Virus record (IMG/VR): IMGVR_UViG_3300049601_000003
Span: 1-25,319 of that record
Strand: one strand, 5' to 3'
From: a virus
Lineage: Duplodnaviria > Caudoviricetes
DNA: 25,319 nt
This document shows, piece after piece, positions 2,465 to 14,509 of the stretch (the stretch's first letter is position 1; each line of letters opens with the position of its first letter). Position numbers and translations under genes: made by a program. A model generated the notes under the pieces. It ran no database searches, was not told where the DNA came from, and saw only the letters and a program-made list of their open reading frames with translations.

Positions 2465-4657
2465 TTGGCTCATTCTGAGTTCTACGCATCACGCAAGACG
2501 TTCTTCCGAGCGTTGTATAGCGGCACTGAGGGCTACATCGTACTGGCTACAATGGACACTGACCTGAATGACTTTCAGGAGGAGTTCTTCAAGTGGCCAA
2601 GCGAGATGGAGACGTTCCTCGATCGCATCGAAAGCATCGAAGGACGAAACGTTTACTACTGCCCGCAGGTGTTCAACGAGCCACGCAGGCTCAAGAAGAC
2701 GGTAGCGTACACTACCTGTGCATGGGCTGACCTTGACACGTGCCACCCCGATGACCTAGCACTAGAACCATCCATCACAATCATGTCGTCACCTGGTAAG
2801 TACCAGGGCATCTGGTTGTTCGACAGGCTCCTCGAACCCGATGTAGCAGAGAACATCTCGAGGAGAATCGCGGCAGCATACAAGTCCAACGGTGCCGACC
2901 ACTGCTGGAACTTGGGTAGGCTACTTCGTGTCCCGTACACGATGAACTACAAGTACGTGTCACCGCACACAGTGACGGTAGTCAAGACTACTGAAGGCGG
3001 ACGTTTTAGGCCTGCGGAGTTCGATGTCTTCCCGCAGGTGCAAGGCAACGAGTACATGGACATCCCGTTCCCTGGTGACCTCCCCCAGGAGACGGCAGAG
3101 GAACTCATGGAGATACACAAGTACGACATCTCCGACAAGGCGCGCGAACTATACCAGTTCACTCCTCCCCCAGGAGAGTCTTGGTCACACCCCCTGTGGA
3201 GTTTGCTCATGCACCTCTTCGAGGCTGGGCTCACTAAAGAACAGGTGTTCGTCGTAGCCAATGAGGCTGCATGCAACAAGTTCAAGCGTGATCGAAAGCC
3301 TCCGGAGTACCTCTGGTCGGACGTATGCCGCGCCTTCTTTCGCAACAAATTCCACACGGGGGTGATGCGCCCGCGCGGCATAGAGGCAGAGCCGCCACTC
3401 CTAACGGACGCAGAGCAAGCTATCGCTGAACGACAGAACACCTTCGTAGAGAGGTACATCGATTGGGCATCTGGTCTCGGCGACGCCGCACCTCAGTATC
3501 ATCAGGCGGGCGCCTTCGTAAACTTGTCAAGTCTGTTGGCAGGCTCTGTAAAGCTGCCAACGAGCTTTGGGACGGTGGTGCCTAACCTCTGGTTCATGAT
3601 CCTGGCGGACACCACGCTGACTCGTAAGACGACGTCCATGGACATCGCCATGGATATGGCAGGCGAGGTGGATCCAGATGTACTCCTAGCGACTGACGGA
3701 TCCATCGAGGGACTGTTTACCGCCCTTGCAGCCAGGCCTGGAAGACCATCTGTCTTCCTGCGCGACGAGTTCTCTGGTCTCCTAGAACAGATGAACAAGC
3801 GGGACTACATGGCAGGGTTCGCTGAGATGCTAACCAAGCTGTACGACGGTAAGCAGCAGAAGCGACTACTACGACGTGAGGTCGTCGAAGTCAAGAATCC
3901 CGTCGTCATCCTGTACACGGGTGGTATCCGTAGCAAGGTGCAGGAGATCCTGACTGATGAGCAGATCGCATCAGGCTTCCTACCCCGGTTCATCTTCATC
4001 ACAGCTGAGTCGGACATCAACAGGGTCCAGCCACTCGGTCCGCCAACGGAGAAGGACTGGGGCGAGCGAGGTACACTGATGGACGAGCTCCGCGATCTCT
4101 CTGCAGCCTACACTGCTATGGAGCAGGTGAAGGTCAAAGGCAAGCTCGTGACCACGCATAACAAGCGCGTGTGGACCGCAGAGCTCACGTCGCAAGCGTG
4201 GACTAGGTACAACGCGCTTGAGACCTCTCTGATGAAGTCTGGAGTCAAGTCAGAGAAGCCCGAAGTGTTCACGCCCATGTATGACCGACTAGCCAAGTCG
4301 CTGTTGAAGGCAGCAGTGCTGTTGGCCGCGAGTCGGCAAGCTGGCTGCGAACGAGTACTAGTCGAGCTCAGAGACATCGTACATGCTGCACACTACGGAC
4401 AGAAGTGGAGGGAGTACGCTAAGGAAGTAGTCATCAACGTTGGTCACAGCCGTGACGAGAAGCGCATCATGACGATCTACAATGCGATCCTTCGTAGTGC
4501 AGGTATCGCACGTAGCGCACTCATGCAGGCCTACCACCTATCATCTCGAGATGCCAATGCCGCCCTGGAGACACTCGAACAACGTGGACTCATCACGCGC
4601 ACACGAGTTGGCAGAACCGAGATGATCAAGCCCAACATCTCTTCGGAGGAAGAATGA
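2465..4657 (+). CDS. DNA primase/helicase: N-terminal RepB-type primase domain plus C-terminal DUF3987-like P-loop helicase
   Basis: Primase motifs AWADLD, SSPGKYQGIW and LLRVPYTMNYKY; helicase region ADTTLTRKTT (Walker A-like), FLRDEF (Walker B) and SGFLPRF; C-terminal winged-helix-like LETLEQRGLI. Confidence 0.85.
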   Translation: MAHSEFYASRKTFFRALYSGTEGYIVLATMDTDLNDFQEEFFKWPSEMETFLDRIESIEGRNVYYCPQVFNEPRRLKKTVAYTTCAWADLDTCHPDDLALEPSITIMSSPGKYQGIWLFDRLLEPDVAENISRRIAAAYKSNGADHCWNLGRLLRVPYTMNYKYVSPHTVTVVKTTEGGRFRPAEFDVFPQVQGNEYMDIPFPGDLPQETAEELMEIHKYDISDKARELYQFTPPPGESWSHPLWSLLMHLFEAGLTKEQVFVVANEAACNKFKRDRKPPEYLWSDVCRAFFRNKFHTGVMRPRGIEAEPPLLTDAEQAIAERQNTFVERYIDWASGLGDAAPQYHQAGAFVNLSSLLAGSVKLPTSFGTVVPNLWFMILADTTLTRKTTSMDIAMDMAGEVDPDVLLATDGSIEGLFTALAARPGRPSVFLRDEFSGLLEQMNKRDYMAGFAEMLTKLYDGKQQKRLLRREVVEVKNPVVILYTGGIRSKVQEILTDEQIASGFLPRFIFITAESDINRVQPLGPPTEKDWGERGTLMDELRDLSAAYTAMEQVKVKGKLVTTHNKRVWTAELTSQAWTRYNALETSLMKSGVKSEKPEVFTPMYDRLAKSLLKAAVLLAASRQAGCERVLVELRDIVHAAHYGQKWREYAKEVVINVGHSRDEKRIMTIYNAILRSAGIARSALMQAYHLSSRDANAALETLEQRGLITRTRVGRTEMIKPNISSEEE

Positions 4658-5427
4658 CCGACTGCGTCGCCATCGTCTCAGGTGGCCTCGACTCCACGAC
4701 GCTCGCCTACGACCTCGTAGCGGACGGCCACAAGCCGCACCTGCTCGCCTTCGACTACGGTCAGCGTCACAGCAAGGAACTGCAGTATGCACAGCGCACG
4801 GCGACTCAGCTCAAGCTCGACTTCACCCTCGTCGATCTGCGGAGTGTGACCAAGCTCATCAGCAACAGTGCGCTTACCGGGGACGATGATGTCCCTGAGG
4901 GCCACTACGCCGAGAGCAACATGAACCTCACGGTCGTCCCGAACCGCAACATGATCATGCTGTCCATCGCAGCTGGTGCGGCTGTCAACAGCAAGTGTGA
5001 GTTCGTCGCTACTGGCGTACACGCAGGCGATCACTGGGTCTACCCGGATTGCCGTCCGCGCTTCATCTCCTCGGTAGCACGAACTGTCATCCTCGGCAAC
5101 GAAGGCTTCGGTGCCATCCCTACTCTCGATGATGGTGAAGCACCGTCCGATGACTTCATCAGGGCCCCGTACCTGACCTTCCTCAAGGAGGACATCGCCT
5201 ACCGAGCATTCCAGCTGGGCGTTCCGGTTCACGAGACCTGGAGCTGCTACAAGGGTCGAAGCGCTCACTGCGGCCGATGCGGCACCTGCGTCGAGCGCCT
5301 CGAGGCCATCGCTGAGGCTCAGGCGCGATACATGAAGGAGACAGGTAACCTCGAGCTGCCCGACTCCTGGCAGGACTACACGGAGTACGAGGACACCGAG
5401 TACTGGAAGCACGCCATCAGCAAGTAA
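4654..5427 (+). CDS. queC: 7-cyano-7-deazaguanine (preQ0) synthase QueC
   Basis: PP-loop SGGLDSTT, FDYGQRH, VVPNRN, YPDCRP and Zn motif TWSCY-x6-CGRCGTCVER. Confidence 0.96.
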   Translation: MTDCVAIVSGGLDSTTLAYDLVADGHKPHLLAFDYGQRHSKELQYAQRTATQLKLDFTLVDLRSVTKLISNSALTGDDDVPEGHYAESNMNLTVVPNRNMIMLSIAAGAAVNSKCEFVATGVHAGDHWVYPDCRPRFISSVARTVILGNEGFGAIPTLDDGEAPSDDFIRAPYLTFLKEDIAYRAFQLGVPVHETWSCYKGRSAHCGRCGTCVERLEAIAEAQARYMKETGNLELPDSWQDYTEYEDTEYWKHAISK

Positions 5428-5457
5428 GAACAGAACCCACAACAAGGAGAACAAGTC

Positions 5458-5970
5458 ATGAAGTTCGGAAAGCTCATCGCCTCGACCATCGCTACCGCCG
5501 TCGCTACGCTCTCGATGAACGTCGTCGCGCCTACCACTGCGCACGCTGCAGTCAGTAAACAGAGTGCCGTGCAGCAGGCTGCCGCTGCCACGAAGGCCTC
5601 CAAGGCATTGGCTTGGGCCAAGACGCAAGACGACAAGTACTACTGCTACGGCGGTGAGGGACCGCGTTGCTACGACTGCAGTGGCCTGGTCCAGACCGCC
5701 TACAAGAAGCAGGGTATCTCGCTCCCGCGGACGTCCGGGGACCAACGTGCCTCATCAAAGACTGTGCACGTCTCGCGCTACGCTGCTGCACCGGGCGACC
5801 TGGTCTTCAGTAGCAATAACGGCCACGTCGACCTCCTGGCGAAGAAGCCCTACAAGAAGAACGGCAAGTGGTACACCGTAGTCTTCGGAGCAGGCAGTTC
5901 CAAGACCGGGATCCGATACCGTACCTTCTCGTACGTGCCTCACATCGAACGCGTCAAGGGGGCCAGGTGA
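5458..5970 (+). CDS. secreted NlpC/P60 family peptidoglycan hydrolase
   Basis: Signal peptide MKFGK-hydrophobic-AHA; Y-x-YGG-x-GP..YDCSGLVQ-x-AY, LPRTS, PGDLVF and GHV catalytic Cys/His motifs; RBS AAGGAG. Confidence 0.9.
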   Translation: MKFGKLIASTIATAVATLSMNVVAPTTAHAAVSKQSAVQQAAAATKASKALAWAKTQDDKYYCYGGEGPRCYDCSGLVQTAYKKQGISLPRTSGDQRASSKTVHVSRYAAAPGDLVFSSNNGHVDLLAKKPYKKNGKWYTVVFGAGSSKTGIRYRTFSYVPHIERVKGAR

Positions 5971-5971
5971 C

Positions 5972-6088
5972 ATGCCCTGGGGGCAGTTCTTCACCTTCGT
6001 CGGTCAGGTGGCAATAGTCATCTTCCTGCTGTTCATCGTTGCAGCGATGATTAGCGTAGTGATCGACCACTTCAACAAGAGGAACTAG
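5972..6088 (+). CDS. small single-pass membrane protein (38 aa)
   Basis: Hand-translated MPWGQFFTFVGQVAIVIFLLFIVAAMISVVIDHFNKRN*; fills the gap between NlpC/P60 and queD with 1-bp spacing on each side. Confidence 0.65.
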   Translation: MPWGQFFTFVGQVAIVIFLLFIVAAMISVVIDHFNKRN

Positions 6089-6089
6089 T

Positions 6090-6551
6090 ATGGTGCAGAG
6101 CATCTCCGTCAAGCACAACTTCGAAGCAGCGCACAGACTGTATACGACCCCTGGCAAGTGTCAGGCGATTCACGGTCACTCGTTCTGGGCCACGCTGACG
6201 CTGTACGGTCCCGTCGACGCCAACGGGCTAGTGTGCAGCATCGACTTCGGAGATCTCAAGAAGGCGTACAGGTCCTACCTGGACAACAACTTCGACCATC
6301 ACATCCTGCTCAACCAGGATGACCCCTGGGCACAGCCACTCGCACCGAGCAAGGAGCCGTACCACCCGCACGGCGTAGAGTTCGTCCGTCTGCCAGGACT
6401 CAAGCCCGTCCCGGAAGATCCCACGACGGAGAACCTCGCCCGTTGGATTGGTGAGTACATGACCGAGCAGGTCCAGGGGAACAACGTCGAGCGCATCCTG
6501 GTTCAGGTTCAGGAGACGGCCGTCAACGGGGCCTCATGGAGGTCTTCTTAG
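6090..6551 (+). CDS. queD: 6-carboxy-5,6,7,8-tetrahydropterin synthase QueD
   Basis: FEAAHRL, KC-x3-HGHS, IDFGDLK, FDHH-x-LLN, PTTENLA and VQET motifs. Confidence 0.94.
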   Translation: MVQSISVKHNFEAAHRLYTTPGKCQAIHGHSFWATLTLYGPVDANGLVCSIDFGDLKKAYRSYLDNNFDHHILLNQDDPWAQPLAPSKEPYHPHGVEFVRLPGLKPVPEDPTTENLARWIGEYMTEQVQGNNVERILVQVQETAVNGASWRSS

Positions 6552-7006
6552 TGAGACGCTACCTCGAACGGAACGGCCACCTACGGCGTTGGGGTGCCGT
6601 CTACATCCTGACAATTCTGTTCCTGGGTTCATGGCTTGGACAAGCCATCACTATGTGGGACCAGGGCTGGAATGAGTTCTGGGCAGCAACGTTCGAGAAC
6701 TGGCAGTCCGAGTGGCTACAGCTGATCTTCCAGGCAGTACTGCTACTCGGTGCCAAGCACTGGTTGTTCCGTATCGATGCAGAAGACCTCGAGCGGATCG
6801 AACACAAAGTAGACCTGCTACGTCCGGAGCCTACCCCAGGTGTCATCGACCTCGGTGAGGTTGTACCCGGACAACGCATGCTGATCCGAGGAGCACGTTA
6901 CAACGTGACAGAGATCAGCATGGACCTAGGAGGCAACCTCAACATCGGTCTACAGATCGACCTCGTGTATCGCGGGAAGCGTATCTACAGAGAAGGAGGT
7001 CGGTGA
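6536..7006 (+). CDS. membrane protein, DUF6766-like N-terminal part plus a soluble C-terminal extension (start may be GTG 6551)
   Basis: Two hydrophobic segments and the motif FWAATFENWQSEWLQL, resembling the FENWQSE(F/W)LQ signature I recall for DUF6766. Confidence 0.55.
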   Translation: MEVFLVRRYLERNGHLRRWGAVYILTILFLGSWLGQAITMWDQGWNEFWAATFENWQSEWLQLIFQAVLLLGAKHWLFRIDAEDLERIEHKVDLLRPEPTPGVIDLGEVVPGQRMLIRGARYNVTEISMDLGGNLNIGLQIDLVYRGKRIYREGGR

Positions 7007-7734
7007 TGCGTCTACTAGAACACTATGCAAGTGTTCAAGGTGAAGGCCCTCGTACAGGAACACCAACACAGTTCGTACGTTTCGCTGGGTGCAACCTTCG
7101 TTGCCCTGGGTGGCCGTGCGATACGCCGTTCGCCATCGAGCCCAAGCAGTGGCGGAAAGAAGCTCAGTACCCGTCTAACAACGATCTCCTCGACAAGATT
7201 CAACGCATGGCGGAGGAGCAGGGTGCGAGGAACATCTGCCTTACCGGGGGAGAGCCTCTCTTGCAGCCAACCAACGCTATCGTGCGACTAGCACAGCGCG
7301 CTGTGTGCAACCTCGGCTGCACCGTCGAAACATTCACGAACGGCTCACGGCGTATTCCAGCACAGCTGACGACCTGGTCGTCGTTCGTGATGGACTGGAA
7401 GCTTGCTGGCAGTGGTGAGAAGTTCAGTCCCGAGTACGAAAGCAACAGGCGGGCGAACGTCGATCTCCTGAACGTGTATCGCCACAGCGGTACACAGAAC
7501 AGCATCAAGTTCGTCTGCAAGGACGTGGACGACCTCCACGAGGCACTAGACATCTACGAGGAACTGGATCTAGTTGTCTGGTCTGGCAACGTGTACTTCG
7601 GTGTAGTCTGGGGTGGCGACCTCAAGGCTGGAGACCTAGTAGACAGACTCCTCGTCGCGAACCCTGGACGGAACTGGTACCTCAACGTCCAGACTCACAA
7701 CTACATCTTCAATCCGCAGGAGCGTGGTCGATGA
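7003..7734 (+). CDS. queE: 7-carboxy-7-deazaguanine synthase QueE (radical SAM)
   Basis: SVQGEG-x2-TG-x-P-x2-FVRFAGCNLRCPGWPCDT, LTGGEPLLQ, TNGS, IKFV and C-terminal VQTH. Confidence 0.93.
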   Translation: MMRLLEHYASVQGEGPRTGTPTQFVRFAGCNLRCPGWPCDTPFAIEPKQWRKEAQYPSNNDLLDKIQRMAEEQGARNICLTGGEPLLQPTNAIVRLAQRAVCNLGCTVETFTNGSRRIPAQLTTWSSFVMDWKLAGSGEKFSPEYESNRRANVDLLNVYRHSGTQNSIKFVCKDVDDLHEALDIYEELDLVVWSGNVYFGVVWGGDLKAGDLVDRLLVANPGRNWYLNVQTHNYIFNPQERGR

Positions 7735-8294
7735 CTGAAGACTTCATGCAGAGCGAGCTCACGGCTCAGGCTGCCTCGGTGCTATTCCATGCCGCCGGCT
7801 TGGATGTCACAAATCCACACGGGGCGGCTACGCCTGCACGTTTCGTGCGGATGCTTCAGGAGCTCACTACCCCCGAGCCGTTCAAGTTCACGACGTTCCC
7901 GGCTGAGAGCCAGAACATGATCATGCTGAAGGACATCCCGTTCTCCAGCGTGTGTAGCCACCACGTGATTCCGTTCGTGGGATACGCTCACGTGGCCTAC
8001 GTTCCGAACAAGCTCATCGCCGGACTCTCCAAGTTCGCGCGCCTGATCAAGGCGTCGTCGCGTAGCCTTCAGGTGCAGGAGAGCCTCACGATGCAGATCG
8101 CCGACGGCATCGAACATCATCTCGAGCCGCTCGGTGTCGCTGTCATCATGGAGGCAGAGCACCTGTGCATGACCATCCGCGGCGCACAGTCACCTGGCAC
8201 GAAGACGCGTACTGCTGAGATGCGCGGGGTCTTTGCTGATCATGCGAAGACGGCGAAGACTGAGTTCCTCAGCTACGTCAACGGAGGTAAGTGA
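7731..8294 (+). CDS. folE: GTP cyclohydrolase I FolE
   Basis: TPARF, IPFSSVCSHH-x2-PF-x-G-x-AHVAY-x-P, GLSKFAR, LQVQE-x-LT and AEHLCM-x2-RG. Confidence 0.96.
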   Translation: MTEDFMQSELTAQAASVLFHAAGLDVTNPHGAATPARFVRMLQELTTPEPFKFTTFPAESQNMIMLKDIPFSSVCSHHVIPFVGYAHVAYVPNKLIAGLSKFARLIKASSRSLQVQESLTMQIADGIEHHLEPLGVAVIMEAEHLCMTIRGAQSPGTKTRTAEMRGVFADHAKTAKTEFLSYVNGGK

Positions 8295-8950
8295 TGCCAC
8301 TACCCTACCAGCCCGTTCGTCTCCGGTACGGCTACAAGCCCGGCAGCGCCTACCAGGCCATCCCCTGTGTGGATACTGCAGTAGTCATCGGTGAGCCCAC
8401 GGACATCTACTTCGACGAGGACCTCACCGACCCGTACTCGCACCACGCCAACAGTGGTGGTATCTCAATCATCAACGGCCCGGCTAGCCCCAACGGGTAC
8501 TGGGTCGACGGTACCATCTCCCTGTGGATCCGCGACCTCTGGTCGCCGAACAAGGATCACCAGACTGAGTTCCAGGTTCGCCTCCGTAAGTGCACCGTCC
8601 TACCTGACATCGACGGTGTCGTCAAGCCGAACGGTCAGTCTGGTCCGACGCTCAATACGAACAGTACGCTCTTCTCGGACGAAGACTACGGCCCTGTCCA
8701 CTACGACGACCTGCTCTGGGATGCTAACGGCAACGTCTCGCCCGACGAGCCATCACACACCCCCGTCAACAAGCACTACATGTTCGAATTCAAGTGTGAA
8801 GAGGTGAACGCGAACGAGCGCCTGCGCGTGGCGATCAGTCAGTTCCACTCAGCGAACGCCAACGGCAACTTCCTGGTGCCCGGATACGACATGCCCTACC
8901 CGGGCTACATCTGGCGTGCGCAGGCACGTCTCAAGGCCTGGCCCCGGTAA
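8291..8950 (+). CDS. hypothetical beta-rich protein (219 aa)
   Basis: Long ORF with typical codon bias that overlaps the folE stop; no catalytic motif recognised. Confidence 0.75.
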   Translation: MMPLPYQPVRLRYGYKPGSAYQAIPCVDTAVVIGEPTDIYFDEDLTDPYSHHANSGGISIINGPASPNGYWVDGTISLWIRDLWSPNKDHQTEFQVRLRKCTVLPDIDGVVKPNGQSGPTLNTNSTLFSDEDYGPVHYDDLLWDANGNVSPDEPSHTPVNKHYMFEFKCEEVNANERLRVAISQFHSANANGNFLVPGYDMPYPGYIWRAQARLKAWPR

Positions 8951-8952
8951 CG

Positions 8953-9126
8953 ATGGATGAAATCGAAGTCGACACTGTTATAGTCGTCCAGAGTGACGGT
9001 AGCGACTTCGAGTTCAATACCAAGCAGTGCCCGGGGATGGGGGCCTACCTCGTCCCCGGGCTGTCGGAAGACAGCTGCACACTCTGGATTACCATCCCAC
9101 TCAAGAGAGGGCATGACACGACATGA
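8953..9126 (+). CDS. hypothetical protein (57 aa)
   Basis: Hand-translated MDEIEVDTVIVVQSDGSDFEFNTKQCPGMGAYLVPGLSEDSCTLWITIPLKRGHDTT*; fills the gap and has an ATGA overlap with the next gene. Confidence 0.55.
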   Translation: MDEIEVDTVIVVQSDGSDFEFNTKQCPGMGAYLVPGLSEDSCTLWITIPLKRGHDTT

Positions 9127-9434
9127 CGCTTCAGAACCTCGCCAAGCAGGCCGGAGAAGATGGTCACAGGTGGTTCCCCGAGGTGCAGCACCTGCCGCAC
9201 CAGGTGCTCAGCCTCGCCGGGGAGGTTGGCGAGCTGGCCAACCTGGTCAAGAAGGTCGACAGAGGTACGGATACCTTCGATGACCTTAGGCATCAGATGA
9301 TCTCCGAGCTCATGGACGTCTTCGTCTACGCGTTCGCGGCGGCGGCGCTTCTGGGCATCAAGGACCTCGACCAGATGTATGCCAACACGCGGAACCTGAA
9401 CGAGCTGAGGTTCAACAAGTCCTCCATCATATGA
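9123..9434 (+). CDS. MazG-like nucleoside triphosphate pyrophosphohydrolase
   Basis: LSLAGEVGELANLVKK...ISELMDVFVY gives the ExxE...ExxD metal-binding motif of all-alpha NTP-PPases. Confidence 0.85.
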   Translation: MTLQNLAKQAGEDGHRWFPEVQHLPHQVLSLAGEVGELANLVKKVDRGTDTFDDLRHQMISELMDVFVYAFAAAALLGIKDLDQMYANTRNLNELRFNKSSII

Positions 9435-9796
9435 TGGGTTACGAGTTCGAACAGTACGCCAACAAGGAGGACGAGATGCCCGAACAGCCGAGTCTTGCGC
9501 AGCTGATCAACGCTGCGAATAACGAGTACGATGAGCGTACCCAGGAGCGTCACGACGAGGGTGCAGACAAGTACGGGCCGCTGAAGTTCCTCACCGTCAA
9601 CACTCTCGAGGAGGCCATGCAGGAGGTTCTCGACCTGGGCAACTACGCTCGGTACACGTACATCAGACTGTGGCTGCTGAACCACATGCTCGACGATGCC
9701 TACGGTGAGGACGCCCCTCAGAACATTACGTTCTACACGAACCGTCCGGACGTGGTGCCGCCTGCAGACATCGAGACCCCGAAGGGGGAGCAGTAA
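9431..9796 (+). CDS. putative all-alpha NTP pyrophosphatase-like protein
   Basis: R-x2-EG-x2-KYG ... LEEAMQEVLDLGNY (E/ExxD..NY), a pattern seen in phage MazG-fold dNTP diphosphohydrolase-like families; coupled to both neighbours. Confidence 0.55.
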   Translation: MMGYEFEQYANKEDEMPEQPSLAQLINAANNEYDERTQERHDEGADKYGPLKFLTVNTLEEAMQEVLDLGNYARYTYIRLWLLNHMLDDAYGEDAPQNITFYTNRPDVVPPADIETPKGEQ

Positions 9797-10572
9797 TGGC
9801 CAAGCTCGCACTGATCCCGCCCTTCTCTCTGTGCGGTGCATCTGTCAGAGATACCCCCGAAGGGTACTACCTCTACCTGCCTCAGTTGATGGGGCACCCC
9901 CTGTACGACAACTTCGTGTGGCGATCGGACACAGCAGTGTCCTACACGATCCTGGACAACGGCGCATTCGAGGGAGTGTCACTCAACGCTGTCGAACTAC
10001 TCGAGCGAGCCGCACAGCTCAGCGTCAGTGAAGTAGTCATCCCGGACACGCTCGGCGACATGGCTTCAACCCTGGACAAGGTCCAGCACTTCGACAAGGT
10101 CACCCGTCGTAAGCGGATCGAGCTTCTCGAAACGTACCAGGGCATGAACTACATGGCAGTCGTTCAGGGGCGTACGTACGAAGAGCTGGTGCGATGCGTC
10201 GCTGAGTTCACGAAGTACCCCTTCATCACTACGATCGGGATCCCCAAGCACCTAGTCAAGAGTGTCGACAAGAGCGTCCGCTGTCGACTAGCTGAACGCA
10301 TACAGCGGTCGTACGGAGACATGTACCCCGTACACCTCCTCGGAACTGCTCCGCAGCTCCCGGACGAGATCCTGCACATCAGGTACCTGAACTGCGTACG
10401 TGGTATGGACACATCGATGCCGTACGTGTATGCATACCACGGTCTCGATATCAACGAAGCCCACGAGGACCTCAAGCGTCCTGACAACTACTTCGAACTC
10501 GAGCCTGAAGAGTTCAACACCGAGCTACTTACGCATAACATCACCACCCTAGAAGGATGGGCACATGGCTGA
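9796..10572 (+). CDS. TGT/DpdA-like TIM-barrel guanine transglycosylase
   Basis: Ordered motifs ILDNGAFE (cf. TGT DSGGF), VVIPD, MAVVQG (cf. GIVQG), IGIP, VHLLG and RGMDTS; same transcription unit as queC/D/E/folE; TAATG coupling. Confidence 0.7.
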   Translation: MAKLALIPPFSLCGASVRDTPEGYYLYLPQLMGHPLYDNFVWRSDTAVSYTILDNGAFEGVSLNAVELLERAAQLSVSEVVIPDTLGDMASTLDKVQHFDKVTRRKRIELLETYQGMNYMAVVQGRTYEELVRCVAEFTKYPFITTIGIPKHLVKSVDKSVRCRLAERIQRSYGDMYPVHLLGTAPQLPDEILHIRYLNCVRGMDTSMPYVYAYHGLDINEAHEDLKRPDNYFELEPEEFNTELLTHNITTLEGWAHG

Positions 10573-10717
10573 CCTGGAACTCAAGCTCGTACCCGACGCC
10601 GGACGCATCGCGGATGTGCTAGACATCATGTCGTCGCACATGACAGCTGCTGCAAACGAGCTTCGTGAGTACGAGGCGAATCGGGAGGAAGAGTGCGACG
10701 ACGTAAGCGACTCGTAG
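10565..10717 (+). CDS. hypothetical acidic protein (50 aa)
   Basis: Hand-translated MADLELKLVPDAGRIADVLDIMSSHMTAAANELREYEANREEECDDVSDS*; RBS-like GAAGGA; overlaps the upstream stop. Confidence 0.55.
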   Translation: MADLELKLVPDAGRIADVLDIMSSHMTAAANELREYEANREEECDDVSDS

Positions 10718-10811
10718 AGAAGTTCCTCTGCCCGGTATGCTTTCGACTGAAGCGGTCACCATTTCACCTACTCGTCAAGGCTGTGGGCCTCTGTCCGGGG
10801 GAGAACAATCG

Positions 10812-11144
10812 ATGAGAGACCACTTCACGAAGATCGGTGAGCTGGCCGGGTCGTACGCAACCAGCGTCGACGTGACCACGACGCTGACTGTGCGCACCAC
10901 CACAATCTGTGTGAGCGCTACCCTCAAGCCGCATACGCCCAAAGACTTGCGAGACGATAGCACGGTACGTCAACAACTCTTTGAGTCGGCACAAAAGCTT
11001 ATAGCCTCCGTGGAGGCAGAAGGTTACGTGCACAAGCAGCCACCGGCCATCTTTATTGATGGTGAGGTAGTGAGCTCACTGGCTGAGAAGCCCAGCCACA
11101 TCGTCTCTGGTGTACTCGAACTAGAGCTCGGAGCAAATGCGTGA
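10812..11144 (+). CDS. hypothetical protein
   Basis: ATG at 10812 after GGGGAG, preferred to 10737; GTGA overlap with the polymerase start. Confidence 0.6.
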   Translation: MRDHFTKIGELAGSYATSVDVTTTLTVRTTTICVSATLKPHTPKDLRDDSTVRQQLFESAQKLIASVEAEGYVHKQPPAIFIDGEVVSSLAEKPSHIVSGVLELELGANA

Positions 11145-14100
11145 GTGAAGAAGTCGAAGAGGTCGTCCGAAAGCATCCTGCAGCAGAGTGCGAGAACTGC
11201 CCGTTGCAGAAGGACGGCCTCTTCGTCCCTAGCGACGGACCAGCAAAGGCTCGTATCGCCTTCGTAGGCGAAGCTGCAGGGCGTCAAGAGGTAGACGCTG
11301 GCAAGCCCTTCATTGGCGTAAGCGGCCAACTCCTCGACAAGGTAAACAACCACTACAACATCACCCGTCGACAGGTACTCCTCACCAATGCGACGCTCTG
11401 TAGGCCCCCAGGCCTCGAGAACATGTCACCGCCTGCAGGAGCTATCAAGGCATGCAGGCCTCGACTCATCCACGAGCTGACGGAACGTGGTGTTGAGACA
11501 GCAGTCGCTCTCGGGAACGTTGCTTCGCAGTCCCTGCTCGCCAGTGCGGATGGCGTGACCAAACTCCGAGTCGGACCTGGCAAGCCATCACCATACGCAG
11601 AACACATCCGTGTGGTTCCTACCTTCCATCCCGCCGCGTGCCTGCGCAACCCGGACTTCTTCCCTTCACTCGTGAAGGACATCTCCAAGATCAACCGCAA
11701 GCAGGTTCCCTGGGAGCCACCGAAGTACGTAGTATACGACACTGTATCCGAGGCCATCGCCGTCTTAAAGGAGGTCAAGAACCACACGGGGCGGCGGTTG
11801 GTGATCGATATCGAGACGGACATCGAGAAGGACGTAGCGTACGATCATCCCAACAACTACGAGCTCCTGTGTATCGGTCTTGGTTACGACAAGAAGCGTG
11901 TCGTGGTCATCGAGCGCAACGCCCTTCGGGACTCTCGGGTGTTAGCCGCTCTCGGTGATCTGCTTCGAAGTAAGGACCTGACAGCACAGAACGGCAAGTA
12001 CGACATCGCAGGGCTCTACCCTCACGTCGGAGCACTCGAGCTGAAGTTCGATACGATGCTCGCTAGCTACGCCAAGGACGAACGTCGAGGGGTTCACTCC
12101 CTTGACTACCAGGGTATCGAACTGCTGGGCACTCCTGACTGGAAGCACGAGCTCGACAAGTACGAACCGAGGAAGAACGGCTACGGCGTCATCCCGGTAG
12201 ACGAGCTGGATCGATACAACGCGTACGACGTCTCGATCACCTGGGATCTGCAGGACTACTACGAGGAGCGTCTGAGTCCTGACGAGCGCGCGGACCACGA
12301 TCATCGTGTAGCAGCTTCAAACCAGTTGGTGTTCCTGGAGCTCAACGGGATCAAAATCGACGTTGACTACAACACTAAACTGACTACTGAGTACCTGGAT
12401 GTCCTAGAGGGAATCAAGGACAAGCTAGTCAGACTCATCGACGATCCTGAGTGGTCAGACTTCAACCCAAACTCGCCTAAGCAGGTCAAGGAGGTTATCG
12501 AGGACATCTTCAGTATCAGCATCCCCCTCAAGAGGAACCAGAAGGGACAACCAGCTAAGAGCACCGACGAAGAGACGCTGCGGGGTCTGTCAGAGAAGTT
12601 CGACCCCGAATCACGGGAGTTCGACTTCCTATCAACAATGCTGGAGTGGCGAGAGAATGCCAAGCTCTACGGCTGTGTTGATGAGGATACGCAGATCCTC
12701 ACCCAGCGAGGGTGGCTTCGCTTCAACGAGGTCCGCGAGGGCGACCAGACACTCTCAGTCAACCCTGAGACAGGACTCAGTGAATGGGATACAGTTGAAG
12801 GCGTACATCTGTACCCGGGCAGACACAACCTGGTCTCCTGGGAAGGCAAGACCTTCTCTGCGCTGACTACGCACGACCACCGCTGGCTCACTAACCGGCA
12901 ACCGATCAGGTCCGGCGGACGTCACGGCTGGCTCTGGAAGACGACGGACACCGTACGAAGCAACGACAGGATTCCCAAGGCAGTCCCTTGTGCAGACCTC
13001 CCCACGGTACCGAAGTACCGAGACGAGTTCGTAGAGCTCGTTGCCTGGCTCTGGACAGAGGGTAGTGTTGACGGTCCTGGACTCAACATCATCCAATCAC
13101 ATGCTGTCAACGAGCCCAACGTACTCCGTATCCGACGCGCATTGACAACGCTCTACCCCAATCCCGATAGGAACAGACTCTACTGGTCAGAGCGTCAAGC
13201 GACTGAACGCATCACAGAGTTCTACATCGGTGCCAGAATGGCCAACGAATTCAAGGAGGTGTTCCTCAAGCATAAGGTGGTTAACCCGGAGTTCATCCGA
13301 TCGCTCACCAAGGCGCAGCTCCAACTGTTCGTCGACGTCTCCATTCTAGGAGACGGATGTACAAAGGGAGATGCACTAGACAGCATCTCTCAGGAGAACA
13401 CTGAACAGCTGTTCGCAGTGCAGCTAGCCTGTACCCTGCTTGGTATCTCGACTAGCATCGGCTGGTACAACAACGCCTACCGGATGCTCATCCAGAGGGG
13501 CATCTGGCATCAACCACTACAGGCAGCACGAGGCAAGAACGGACTCGAGATCAAGGAGGTGGAGTACACAGGTACTGTCTGGTGTGTGTCGACACGTAAC
13601 GCCAACTGGCTAGCGAGGCGGAATGGAAAACTCTACTACACCGGAAACACGTACGTCAAGGGAATCCGAAAGCGACTCTACCAAGGTCGTGTGTACCCCA
13701 GTTTCCTTCTTCATGGTACAACAACGGGACGGCTCGCTTGCCGGAACCCTAACCTTCAGAATGTCCCCCGAGGAAGCAAGATCCGTTCTCAGTTCATTCC
13801 AGCCTCCGCGGGGAACGTCTTCGTTTCAGTCGACTACAGCCAAGCTGAGCTTCGCGTGCTCACTTGGCTCGCTCAGGAAGAGTACTTTCGGAGCATCTTC
13901 AACGATGGTGATCGGGACCTCTTCAACGAACTCGCTCCTGTTCTCTATGGTGACATATCCCATCTATCGCCTGCCGAGAAAAAAGAAAAGCGAATCCGTG
14001 TCAAGGCCTACGTCTACGGGCTTGGCTACGGCCGAGAGGCACTCTCCATCGCACAGGAATTCAAGATCGGTGTCATGGAAGCCCAATCCGGTATGGATGC

Positions 14101-14509
14101 TTTCTTTGACGTCATCCCTCACATCGTGGCGTACCAGAAGAGCGTCGAAGACGACATCCGCAGCAAGCGCGTCCTCACTACCCCCTTCGGACGACGTAGG
14201 AGATTCCACCTCCTGACAGCACACAACATCAACAAGTGCATCAAGGAAGGACTAGCTTTCCGTCCGCAGAGCATCAGCTCCGATCTCTGTCTTCGTGCGT
14301 TCACCTGGGCTAGGCCTGCTCTCAGAGGCAAGGCACAACTACGCAACATCGTCCACGACAACATCATGGCCGAGTGCCGTGAAAAGGATGCAGAAGAAGT
14401 CGGTCAGGTTCTCAACGATCTGATGCTGAAGTCCGCACAACAGCTGGTAGGGGACTATGTCCAATTCGCAACAGACACCACCGTCGGAGACAGCTGGGGA
14501 GCCGTATAG
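11141..14509 (+). CDS. polA: family A DNA polymerase: N-terminal family-4 uracil-DNA-glycosylase-like domain, 3'-5' exonuclease, polymerase; contains an intein
   Basis: UDG-like: CENCPL, FVGEAAG, GKPFIGVSG, TNATLCRP, VALGNVA, PTFHPAA. Exonuclease: IDIET, QNGKYD, DTMLA, YNAYD. Polymerase: FNPNSPKQ, TTTGRL..NPNLQN, motif A DYSQAELR, motif B RIRVKAYVYGLGYG, motif C VHDN. Confidence 0.95.
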   Translation: MSEEVEEVVRKHPAAECENCPLQKDGLFVPSDGPAKARIAFVGEAAGRQEVDAGKPFIGVSGQLLDKVNNHYNITRRQVLLTNATLCRPPGLENMSPPAGAIKACRPRLIHELTERGVETAVALGNVASQSLLASADGVTKLRVGPGKPSPYAEHIRVVPTFHPAACLRNPDFFPSLVKDISKINRKQVPWEPPKYVVYDTVSEAIAVLKEVKNHTGRRLVIDIETDIEKDVAYDHPNNYELLCIGLGYDKKRVVVIERNALRDSRVLAALGDLLRSKDLTAQNGKYDIAGLYPHVGALELKFDTMLASYAKDERRGVHSLDYQGIELLGTPDWKHELDKYEPRKNGYGVIPVDELDRYNAYDVSITWDLQDYYEERLSPDERADHDHRVAASNQLVFLELNGIKIDVDYNTKLTTEYLDVLEGIKDKLVRLIDDPEWSDFNPNSPKQVKEVIEDIFSISIPLKRNQKGQPAKSTDEETLRGLSEKFDPESREFDFLSTMLEWRENAKLYGCVDEDTQILTQRGWLRFNEVREGDQTLSVNPETGLSEWDTVEGVHLYPGRHNLVSWEGKTFSALTTHDHRWLTNRQPIRSGGRHGWLWKTTDTVRSNDRIPKAVPCADLPTVPKYRDEFVELVAWLWTEGSVDGPGLNIIQSHAVNEPNVLRIRRALTTLYPNPDRNRLYWSERQATERITEFYIGARMANEFKEVFLKHKVVNPEFIRSLTKAQLQLFVDVSILGDGCTKGDALDSISQENTEQLFAVQLACTLLGISTSIGWYNNAYRMLIQRGIWHQPLQAARGKNGLEIKEVEYTGTVWCVSTRNANWLARRNGKLYYTGNTYVKGIRKRLYQGRVYPSFLLHGTTTGRLACRNPNLQNVPRGSKIRSQFIPASAGNVFVSVDYSQAELRVLTWLAQEEYFRSIFNDGDRDLFNELAPVLYGDISHLSPAEKKEKRIRVKAYVYGLGYGREALSIAQEFKIGVMEAQSGMDAFFDVIPHIVAYQKSVEDDIRSKRVLTTPFGRRRRFHLLTAHNINKCIKEGLAFRPQSISSDLCLRAFTWARPALRGKAQLRNIVHDNIMAECREKDAEEVGQVLNDLMLKSAQQLVGDYVQFATDTTVGDSWGAV
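12674..13648 (+). mobile_element. intein (325 aa) with LAGLIDADG-type homing endonuclease, inserted in the DNA polymerase
   Basis: KLYG|CVDEDTQILTQRGW (block A), TTHDHRW (block B), ELVAWLWTEGS and LFVDVSILGDG (LAGLIDADG-like), VWCVST...YYTGN|TYV (blocks F/G). Removal restores the PolA motif KLYGTYVKG. Confidence 0.93.

Follow-up and report, generated by a model that had tools for sequence, protein, structure and literature searches.

A 7-deazaguanine module of the DpdA3 kind with an orphan helical protein in a tailed-phage genome fragment

Genes of the module and their linkage

The stretch of DNA analysed here (IMG/VR record IMGVR_UViG_3300049601_000003, hereafter the window) comes from a tailed phage. 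It is a fragment of 25,319 bases with 57% GC, in which a replication arm runs rightward and a tail and lysis arm leftward. It carries genes for the synthesis of the 7-deazaguanine preQ0, followed by a gene for a guanine transglycosylase of the DpdA type and by a DNA polymerase gene. Judged by the related loci, the series queC-queD-queE-folE-MazG-PP2-dpdA3 forms a genuine module that belongs to the known DpdA3 kind, and what is new here is a variant of that kind in which an orphan protein (which we call PP2) stands in the kinase's place. The features are the following:

2465..4657 (+): primase-helicase at the left edge of the module (phrog_10514)
4654..5427 (+): queC, preQ0 synthase (PF06508, E 3e-54; TIGR00364, 172.9 bits, cut-off 150.3)
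6090..6551 (+): queD (PF01242, E 3e-27; phrog_2389)
7003..7734 (+): queE, radical SAM protein (phrog_2076, E 2e-34; QueE models head its NCBIfam matches but stay under their cut-offs)
7731..8294 (+): folE, GTP cyclohydrolase I (PF01227, E 5e-53; NF006826 above its cut-off)
9123..9434 (+): dNTP pyrophosphohydrolase of the MazG type, from a subfamily specific to the module (PHROG, profile and motif), with dGTP as presumed substrate
9431..9796 (+): PP2, orphan helical protein in the kinase position, candidate deoxynucleoside monophosphate kinase or phosphotransferase (position, conservation and displacement pattern)
9796..10572 (+): predicted DpdA3 guanine transglycosylase, a bare barrel of the tRNA-guanine transglycosylase (TGT) type (homology to listed DpdA3 proteins, profile and fold)
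11141..14509 (+): family-A DNA polymerase with an N-terminal family-4 uracil-DNA glycosylase (UDG) and proofreading motifs (PF00476, PF03167; matches to NF040953 and TIGR00758; motifs)
12674..13648 (+): 325-residue intein-like insertion in the polymerase, beginning with Cys and ending with Asn before Thr

The four biosynthetic genes match their families, as the initial annotation of the window had proposed, and its statement that queF, arcS and a Gat-QueC domain are missing agrees with our scan of 24 window open reading frames (ORFs), none of which matches QueF, ArcS or Gat-QueC in this 25.3-kb fragment of the genome. The translational coupling of the trio 9123-9434, 9431-9796 and 9796-10572 also holds, with stop and start codons overlapping as ATGA (9123-9126), ATGA (9431-9434) and TAATG (9794-9798). 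The trio had been placed just upstream of the polymerase, but in the window two ORFs (10565-10717 and 10737-11144) intervene; in 83 of 95 relatives the end of dpdA3 lies at most 60 nt from the polymerase frame.

Of 212 overlapping loci that reach from primase to polymerase, 207 contain the module, and in the other five (e.g. Amigo) primase and polymerase lie side by side, with no que genes, MazG, PP2 or dpdA3 between them; the ratio is not a prevalence, because the profiles used to find the loci had been made from module-bearing phages. The co-occurrence of the genes, a check that had been suggested from the outset, was followed in new loci anchored on either gene. PP2 adjoins dpdA3 in 73 of the 74 PP2-anchored loci (the remaining one is cut by the contig end), and of 77 MazG-anchored loci, the 30 with scores of at least 91 bits all neighbour folE or dpdA3, which none of the 47 with scores of 83 bits or less does. 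By this linkage, MazG and PP2 are both parts of the module. For the clade survey used below, dpdA3 was clustered at 90% identity in loci spanning queC to the polymerase, which gave 102 rows from 143 distinct sequences, 96 of them in the window's clade.

The gene at 9796-10572 almost certainly belongs to the DpdA3 subfamily, as judged by sequence comparison. Its best match in an isolate is AYJ76173.1 of Bacillus phage BSP7 (28.6%, E 2e-11), classed under DpdA3, as is BSTP5, in Data S1 of PMC10516641. A profile of 42 homologues aligns with the founding protein of the subfamily, CGPG_00065 of phiST (hhalign 99.2%, E 8e-20, 243 columns), and with gene 56 of CP220 (98.7%), and the DpdA1 enzymes of CAjan and Rosebush are reached at only 22% and 2%, over at most 73 columns. 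The subfamily check recommended with the initial annotation thus points to DpdA3 and away from DpdA1, and the TGT fold noticed there is borne out: the AlphaFold model has a predicted local distance difference test (pLDDT) score of 95, the top Foldseek matches are the TGT 2ash and the DpdA 7ui4, and the structural comparison with VIA aligns 229 residues with 1iq8 (Z 16.2, root-mean-square deviation 3.8) and 230 with 7ui4 (Z 15.5, deviation 3.5). D54, D84, Q124, G125 and D205 are invariant in the 42 sequences; they may include the counterparts of Asp95 and Asp256 of DpdA, as suggested by motifs rather than by a residue-level superposition. Bacterial DpdA and TGT enzymes keep a structural zinc site, whereas the DpdA3 alignment holds no invariant or near-invariant cysteine.

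Extent of guanine replacement and the predicted base

Only three phages with DpdA3 have been tested, phiST, CP220 and immuto_2-6A, and all three show complete replacement of G (PMC10516641). As a measure of the extent of modification from sequence, we used the mean log2 of the observed over expected counts of 6-bp palindromes that contain G. Seventeen module-bearing genomes range from -0.03 to -0.21, with 0-2 sites below half (the window itself stands at -0.13), and show no avoidance, in contrast to six module-less relatives (two of them partial stretches, of 16 and 26 kb), where avoidance is strong (-0.89 to -2.75; Mann-Whitney p 7e-6, for genomes that are related and whose hosts are unidentified). 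The DpdA1 phages CAjan (-1.12) and Rosebush (-1.92), in which 32% and 28% of G is modified (PMC6884629), still avoid these palindromes, and the DpdA3 phages phiST and BSP7, both from partial sequence (21 kb for BSP7), stand at -0.38 and -0.06. This count is a test, based on sequence only, that separates full from partial modification. The high-level substitution put forward in the initial annotation is supported by the membership in DpdA3 and by the lack of palindrome avoidance, and we consider near-complete replacement of G in the window phage probable.

In one module-bearing genome (G024, loci L404-L406), the observed over expected ratio is 0.00 for AATT and 0.17 for TTAA, which are G-free sites that a change of guanine could not shield; along with the palindrome result, this loss favours near-complete protection.

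The predicted base is preQ0 or ADG, because no DpdL, QueF or DpdN was seen in the window. In DpdA1 phages, FolE, QueD, QueE and QueC without QueF or an amidotransferase lead to dPreQ0 (PMC6884629), and these are the four genes found here, which speaks for the dPreQ0 of the initial annotation. That prediction has to be widened, since CP220, which carries dADG, is assigned the same five-gene set in Data S1 of PMC10516641, so that the base may also be dADG. We regard dPreQ0 as the probable base and dADG as the less likely one, and additional genes could lie in the half of the genome that the fragment lacks. For CP220 itself, QueC is listed in Data S1, yet the text of the same paper has the Campylobacter phages stopping at CDG (PMC10516641).

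Route of the exchange

Both the DpdA3 family and the idea of a nucleotide-level change are already known: the use of a modified dGTP by the polymerase was an earlier proposal for Campylobacter phages (Hutinet 2019, PMC6884629). In our literature search, which left most subscription papers outside, no paper showed a nucleotide-level 7-deazaguanine route, DpdA3 was treated in one relevant work, and no paper dealt with the function of the small helical families discussed below. The route by which some phages replace all their guanine has a published on-DNA answer without an enzyme assay behind it, and the window lineage supplies a minimal gene set together with a cultured relative of the same layout (BSP7, on Bacillus subtilis).

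We favour, with a probability of roughly 0.55, a swap at the nucleotide level, made on a free deoxynucleotide before replication. In this mechanism, FolE, QueD, QueE and QueC would make preQ0 (or the amide ADG), which would come to replace nearly all guanines through DpdA3; MazG would cleave dGTP to dGMP, both lowering dGTP and supplying the substrate; DpdA3 would exchange guanine for preQ0 on dGMP; PP2 or host kinases would lift the modified monophosphate towards the triphosphate; and an ordinary UDG-PolA would incorporate the modified dNTP. The nucleotide-level route that the initial annotation had drawn stays a proposal, though a plausible one that agrees with the genes found around dpdA3 in the three chemically proven phages. 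In phiST these neighbours are a P-loop protein of the AAA_18 family and MazG, in CP220 an HD/AAA_33 protein and an AAA_28 P-loop protein, and in immuto_2-6A (by annotation only) an NTP pyrophosphohydrolase and a thymidylate kinase; additionally, a kinase-like P-loop gene lies directly upstream of dpdA3 in BSP7, Youna2, MA9V-3 and L079, with Pfam scores mostly under the cut-offs. Profiles for MazG, PP2, DUF3310 and kinases found nothing in the 49 kb of CAjan or the 62 kb of Rosebush, both of the DpdA1 kind (although a dUTPase is annotated in CAjan at a distance of 15 kb). A nucleoside form of ADG has been detected in the cytoplasm of CP220-infected cells, and the word "kinase" is absent from the main text of the paper that reports it (PMC10516641). 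As a separate observation, the phiST gene that matches AAA_18, CGPG_00066, next to dpdA3, is set aside in that paper.

The MazG-like gene at 9123-9434 stands as first described. It has a PHROG match at E 6e-10 (its Pfam score, 18.4 bits, lies under the cut-off of 22), its family profile matches structures of MazG-like proteins and dCTP pyrophosphatases at E 1e-11 to 1e-12 (dCTP pyrophosphatase 1 is among the nearest solved relatives), and E34, E37, E62 and D65, which form the E-x-x-E ... E-x-x-D metal motif, are invariant in 58 sequences. The match of the profile to MazZ (7ody) is weak (E 0.008).

The reading of PP2 as a second NTP pyrophosphatase (PPase), made in the initial annotation, found no clear family, profile or fold support in our searches. 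Its 50 members share no consistent Pfam family, the best match of its profile in the PDB is AF_0060 at E 0.064, the comparison with the neighbouring MazG profile gives a probability of 7.6%, Foldseek against BFVD returns 0 matches at E 0.001, VIA against 48,161 chains reaches at best Z 5.1 (with coiled coils), and neither of two Atlas searches led to a family that could be named, the nearest model being the dGTP_diPhyd_N cluster, below the naming bar. The monomer model has a predicted template modelling score of 0.51 and is a poor fold query, and the missing fold match does not exclude a PPase family. G44, Y48, G49 and N71 are invariant, and R40, E65, D68 and Y72 nearly so, and an acidic E-E-x-x-D helix corresponds to the second half only of the two-helix motif of MazG-type enzymes. 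No longer or fused forms were found among 7,999 candidates, and none in isolated phages. PP2 has no Walker A motif and no P-loop homology; its likeness to a kinase is one of role only, not of family membership.

What points to that role is position. PP2 is present in 84 of the 96 clade rows, in the place that the kinase takes in other DpdA3 phages, and each of the 12 rows that lack PP2 has a different small helical family instead (DUF3310 in 4, an NMAD1-like family in 7 and a distant PP2 look-alike in 1), these three families occurring in only 10 of the 84 PP2-bearing rows (Fisher p 1e-9); DUF3310 alone occurs in 4 of 12 against 1 of 84 (Fisher p 7e-4), kinship being ignored in both tests. The NMAD1 label is weak, as one member matches PF07659 at E 0.007, under the cut-off, and two others have no match. 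T7 gp1.7, a small non-P-loop dTMP/dGMP kinase, has DUF3310 as its domain (PMC9339283, PMC11897194). Within the module, none of the 96 rows holds a P-loop nucleotide kinase, and since 14 whole PP2-bearing records showed neither a P-loop nucleoside monophosphate (NMP) kinase nor DUF3310, the kinase step here would rest on the orphan. Pfam searches over whole records proved insensitive, the one for MazG missing genomes in which our own profile finds it; absences derived from them are weak, and the 14-record result was relied on instead. The position of MazG changes hands separately: a PRA-PH-type protein holds it in 4 rows, 72 of the 96 rows have both MazG and PP2, and 11 of the 12 MazG-less modules retain PP2. 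The simplest reading is an optional dGTP-cleaving step combined with an always-filled step beside DpdA3, which is a kinase wherever the occupant can be named, and that PP2 itself is a kinase we put forward tentatively, at less than even odds. A conserved 150-residue P-loop family, found in many relatives, was also considered as an NMP kinase and rejected; it has no Pfam match, and by its look we take it to be a helicase or terminase fragment.

The polymerase was called unusual and possibly selective. It is indeed a UDG fusion with an intein-like insertion, but such fusions are known from SPO1, SP-10, N4-like and SP-15-like phages (PMC13697223), and no signature of selectivity was found. Its score with the DpoZ model NF038380 is 36.8 bits against a cut-off of 500, no residue of motifs A, B and C is confined to the module-bearing phages among 14 polymerases, and motif B is shared with the module-less Amigo; we therefore reject a selective polymerase. 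If dGTP is depleted or converted, none is needed, and 7-deazaguanines do not inhibit polymerases (Hutinet 2019, PMC6884629). Without the insertion, the polymerase has 797 residues, like its relatives. The insertion has no Pfam match, and we presume it to be an intein from its Cys start, its Asn-Thr end and the length of the remainder. As to the UDG (11141-11700 in the window), its GEA/GEG motif and His persist in all 10 aligned polymerases from module-bearing members of the clade and the outgroup. The domain looks degenerate in BSP7, in Youna2 and in two module-less loci, L299 and L302, and in Amigo it is missing or reduced to a remnant. In the annotation of BSP7 and Youna2 the polymerase is split into two parts separated by about 300-700 bp (L001:10779-13682 and L002:10761-14030), possibly owing to an intron.

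Several observations weigh against a swap on the free nucleotide. We know of no TGT-family enzyme that acts on such a substrate. MazG is absent from 12 of the 96 clade modules, no MazG was detected elsewhere in 6 of 17 whole module-bearing records, and 141 of the 252 candidate ORFs from four such MazG-less records gave no match to MazG, Nudix, HD or kinase families. PP2 has no detectable similarity to DUF3310 (hhalign 0.1%), which is also found in the module-less Amigo and Nonagon; the PP2-less loci had already been viewed when two of the three substitute families were drawn up, one of them from a single locus; and, although PP2 changes state 8 times on a fast tree, the kin-corrected test has 3 independent pairs on well-supported branches (none going the wrong way) and is not significant (p 0.25). 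The whole PP2-bearing records, with neither a P-loop NMP kinase nor DUF3310, count on the same side, and the half acidic motif and the sub-threshold likeness to dGTP_diPhyd_N leave a hydrolase role for PP2 open. The DpdA3 proteins are acidic (median isoelectric point, pI, 5.3; net charge positive in 2 of 42), which, with the loss of the zinc site, would fit a small-molecule substrate, but this charge is weak evidence because the pI of the CP220 DpdA3 (6.1) overlaps with that of the CAjan DpdA1 (6.3). Small size and closeness to the polymerase, also invoked at first, lose their force with the CAjan DpdA1, which has 306 residues, lies two genes from the polymerase and modifies only about 32% of G. 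Moreover, the palindrome test speaks to the extent of modification and not to its timing.

The strongest alternative is that DpdA3 exchanges every G in newly made DNA, perhaps riding the replisome, with MazG and PP2 adjusting pools or recycling guanine. Post-replicative insertion is the published proposal for all 7-deazaguanine marks, DpdA3 included (PMC10516641), every characterised DpdA enzyme acts on DNA, and the abutment of dpdA3 on the polymerase, the dispensable MazG, the lack of a recognisable kinase in the 14 whole records and the palindrome result (which fits equally well) all agree with it. Against it, the DpdA3 genes gave no modification in an E. coli DNA assay (PMC10516641), DpdA1, DpdA2 and DpdA4 reach at most about 30% of G (PMC10516641, PMC6884629), and the kinase-like genes beside dpdA3, seen in all three proven phages and in four more, were not found with DpdA1; we see it as a real possibility, well short of an even chance.

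A nucleotide-level swap in which PP2 is a second hydrolase, of dGTP or dGDP, and host kinases do the phosphorylation is the version of the initial annotation and a special case of the route that we favour. The E-E-x-x-D helix, the AF_0060 and dGTP_diPhyd_N likenesses, a dGTP_diPhyd_N protein in the same position in L083 and the retention of PP2 in most MazG-less modules would suit it; the frequent co-occurrence of MazG and PP2, the separate replacement of the two positions (by PRA-PH-type proteins, and by DUF3310 or others) and the failure of the profile and fold searches make it unlikely. That modification is sparse or site-specific, or that preQ0 serves host tRNA and the DNA stays mostly unmodified, is improbable: the boosting of tRNA has been raised for phages without a recognised DpdA (Hutinet 2019, PMC6884629) and we found no paper with a chemical analysis of any member of the window lineage, but here DpdA3 is intact with invariant acidic residues, and palindromes are not avoided as they are in phages with 28-32% modification.

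The broadest form of the nucleotide-level swap is that DpdA3 acts on free dGMP and not on nucleic acid, that PP2 founds a non-P-loop family of 7-deaza-dGMP kinases, one of several small helical proteins (DUF3310, NMAD1-like, DUF5664) that fill the same step, and that a large uncultured lineage needs no more than an ordinary polymerase to make genomes free of guanine. Taken as a whole, this is a doubtful proposition. If the nucleotide-level route that we favour holds, the TGT fold would gain a new activity, 7-deaza-dGTP analogues could be made enzymatically, and several widespread phage domains that have no assigned function would receive one.

Closest systems and additional observations

The phages phiST (Cellulophaga, dDG), CP220 (Campylobacter, dADG) and immuto_2-6A (Flavobacterium, fdPreQ1; bases from PMC10516641) share with the window the transglycosylase subfamily, the FolE-QueD-QueE core, a neighbour of the NTP-hydrolase type and a polymerase of their own, and phiST shows, like the window lineage, little palindrome avoidance. 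They differ in that the window lacks the P-loop kinase and has PP2 instead; PP2 was not found in their records, in a search run without a positive control. Closer in layout are Bacillus phages BSP7 and BSTP5 and Weizmannia phage Youna2, which have the same order of Sak4, single-strand binding protein, primase, queC, queD, queE, folE, dpdA3 and UDG-PolA, but carry a P-loop kinase-like gene directly before dpdA3, an NTP-PPase elsewhere and UDG motifs that look degenerate; BSP7 resembles the window lineage in its lack of palindrome avoidance. Rosebush and CAjan (DpdA1, dPreQ0; PMC6884629) have the same four biosynthetic genes and the same predicted base, and differ in their distant enzyme, their partial modification, their palindrome avoidance and the lack of a match to MazG, PP2 or kinase profiles.

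If the nucleotide-level swap holds, the Z-genome pathway (PurZ, MazZ, DatZ, DpoZ) is similar in outline, MazZ making dGMP from dGTP for a base change before replication; the window differs in having no PurZ or DatZ and a polymerase far below the DpoZ cut-off. T7 gp1.7, as a small non-P-loop kinase with a domain found in the module of some PP2-less rows, can be likened to PP2 in role only.

The host is likely actinobacterial, because the nearest cultured primases are those of Arthrobacter, Streptomyces, Curtobacterium and Clavibacter phages (at less than 30% identity). Promoter and terminator counts in the window are at chance level.

Several genes are interspersed in the module. A gene for an NlpC/P60 protein of the secreted type (5458-5970, PF00877) is inserted between queC and queD, with a match in 1 of 84 related loci, and five ORFs (6536-7006, 8291-8950, 8953-9126, 10565-10717 and 10737-11144), which belong to no family and have almost no homologue in related loci, are probably recent insertions. 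In about eight loci (L027, L033, L037, L054, L057 and L059 among them), a DJ-1/PfpI gene with a small partner lies between queC and queD; a connection with the repair of glycated guanine is a possible lead. About six loci (including L012, L039, L042, L044 and L048) hold, inside the module, a 290-residue protein without a Pfam match paired with a DUF6884 protein, which could add a further side-chain step. Finally, the DpdA3 locus L083:7705-9943 combines queC, a Vut_1/YhhQ transporter, MazG and dGTP_diPhyd_N with no folE nearby, a layout that suggests salvage of the precursor.

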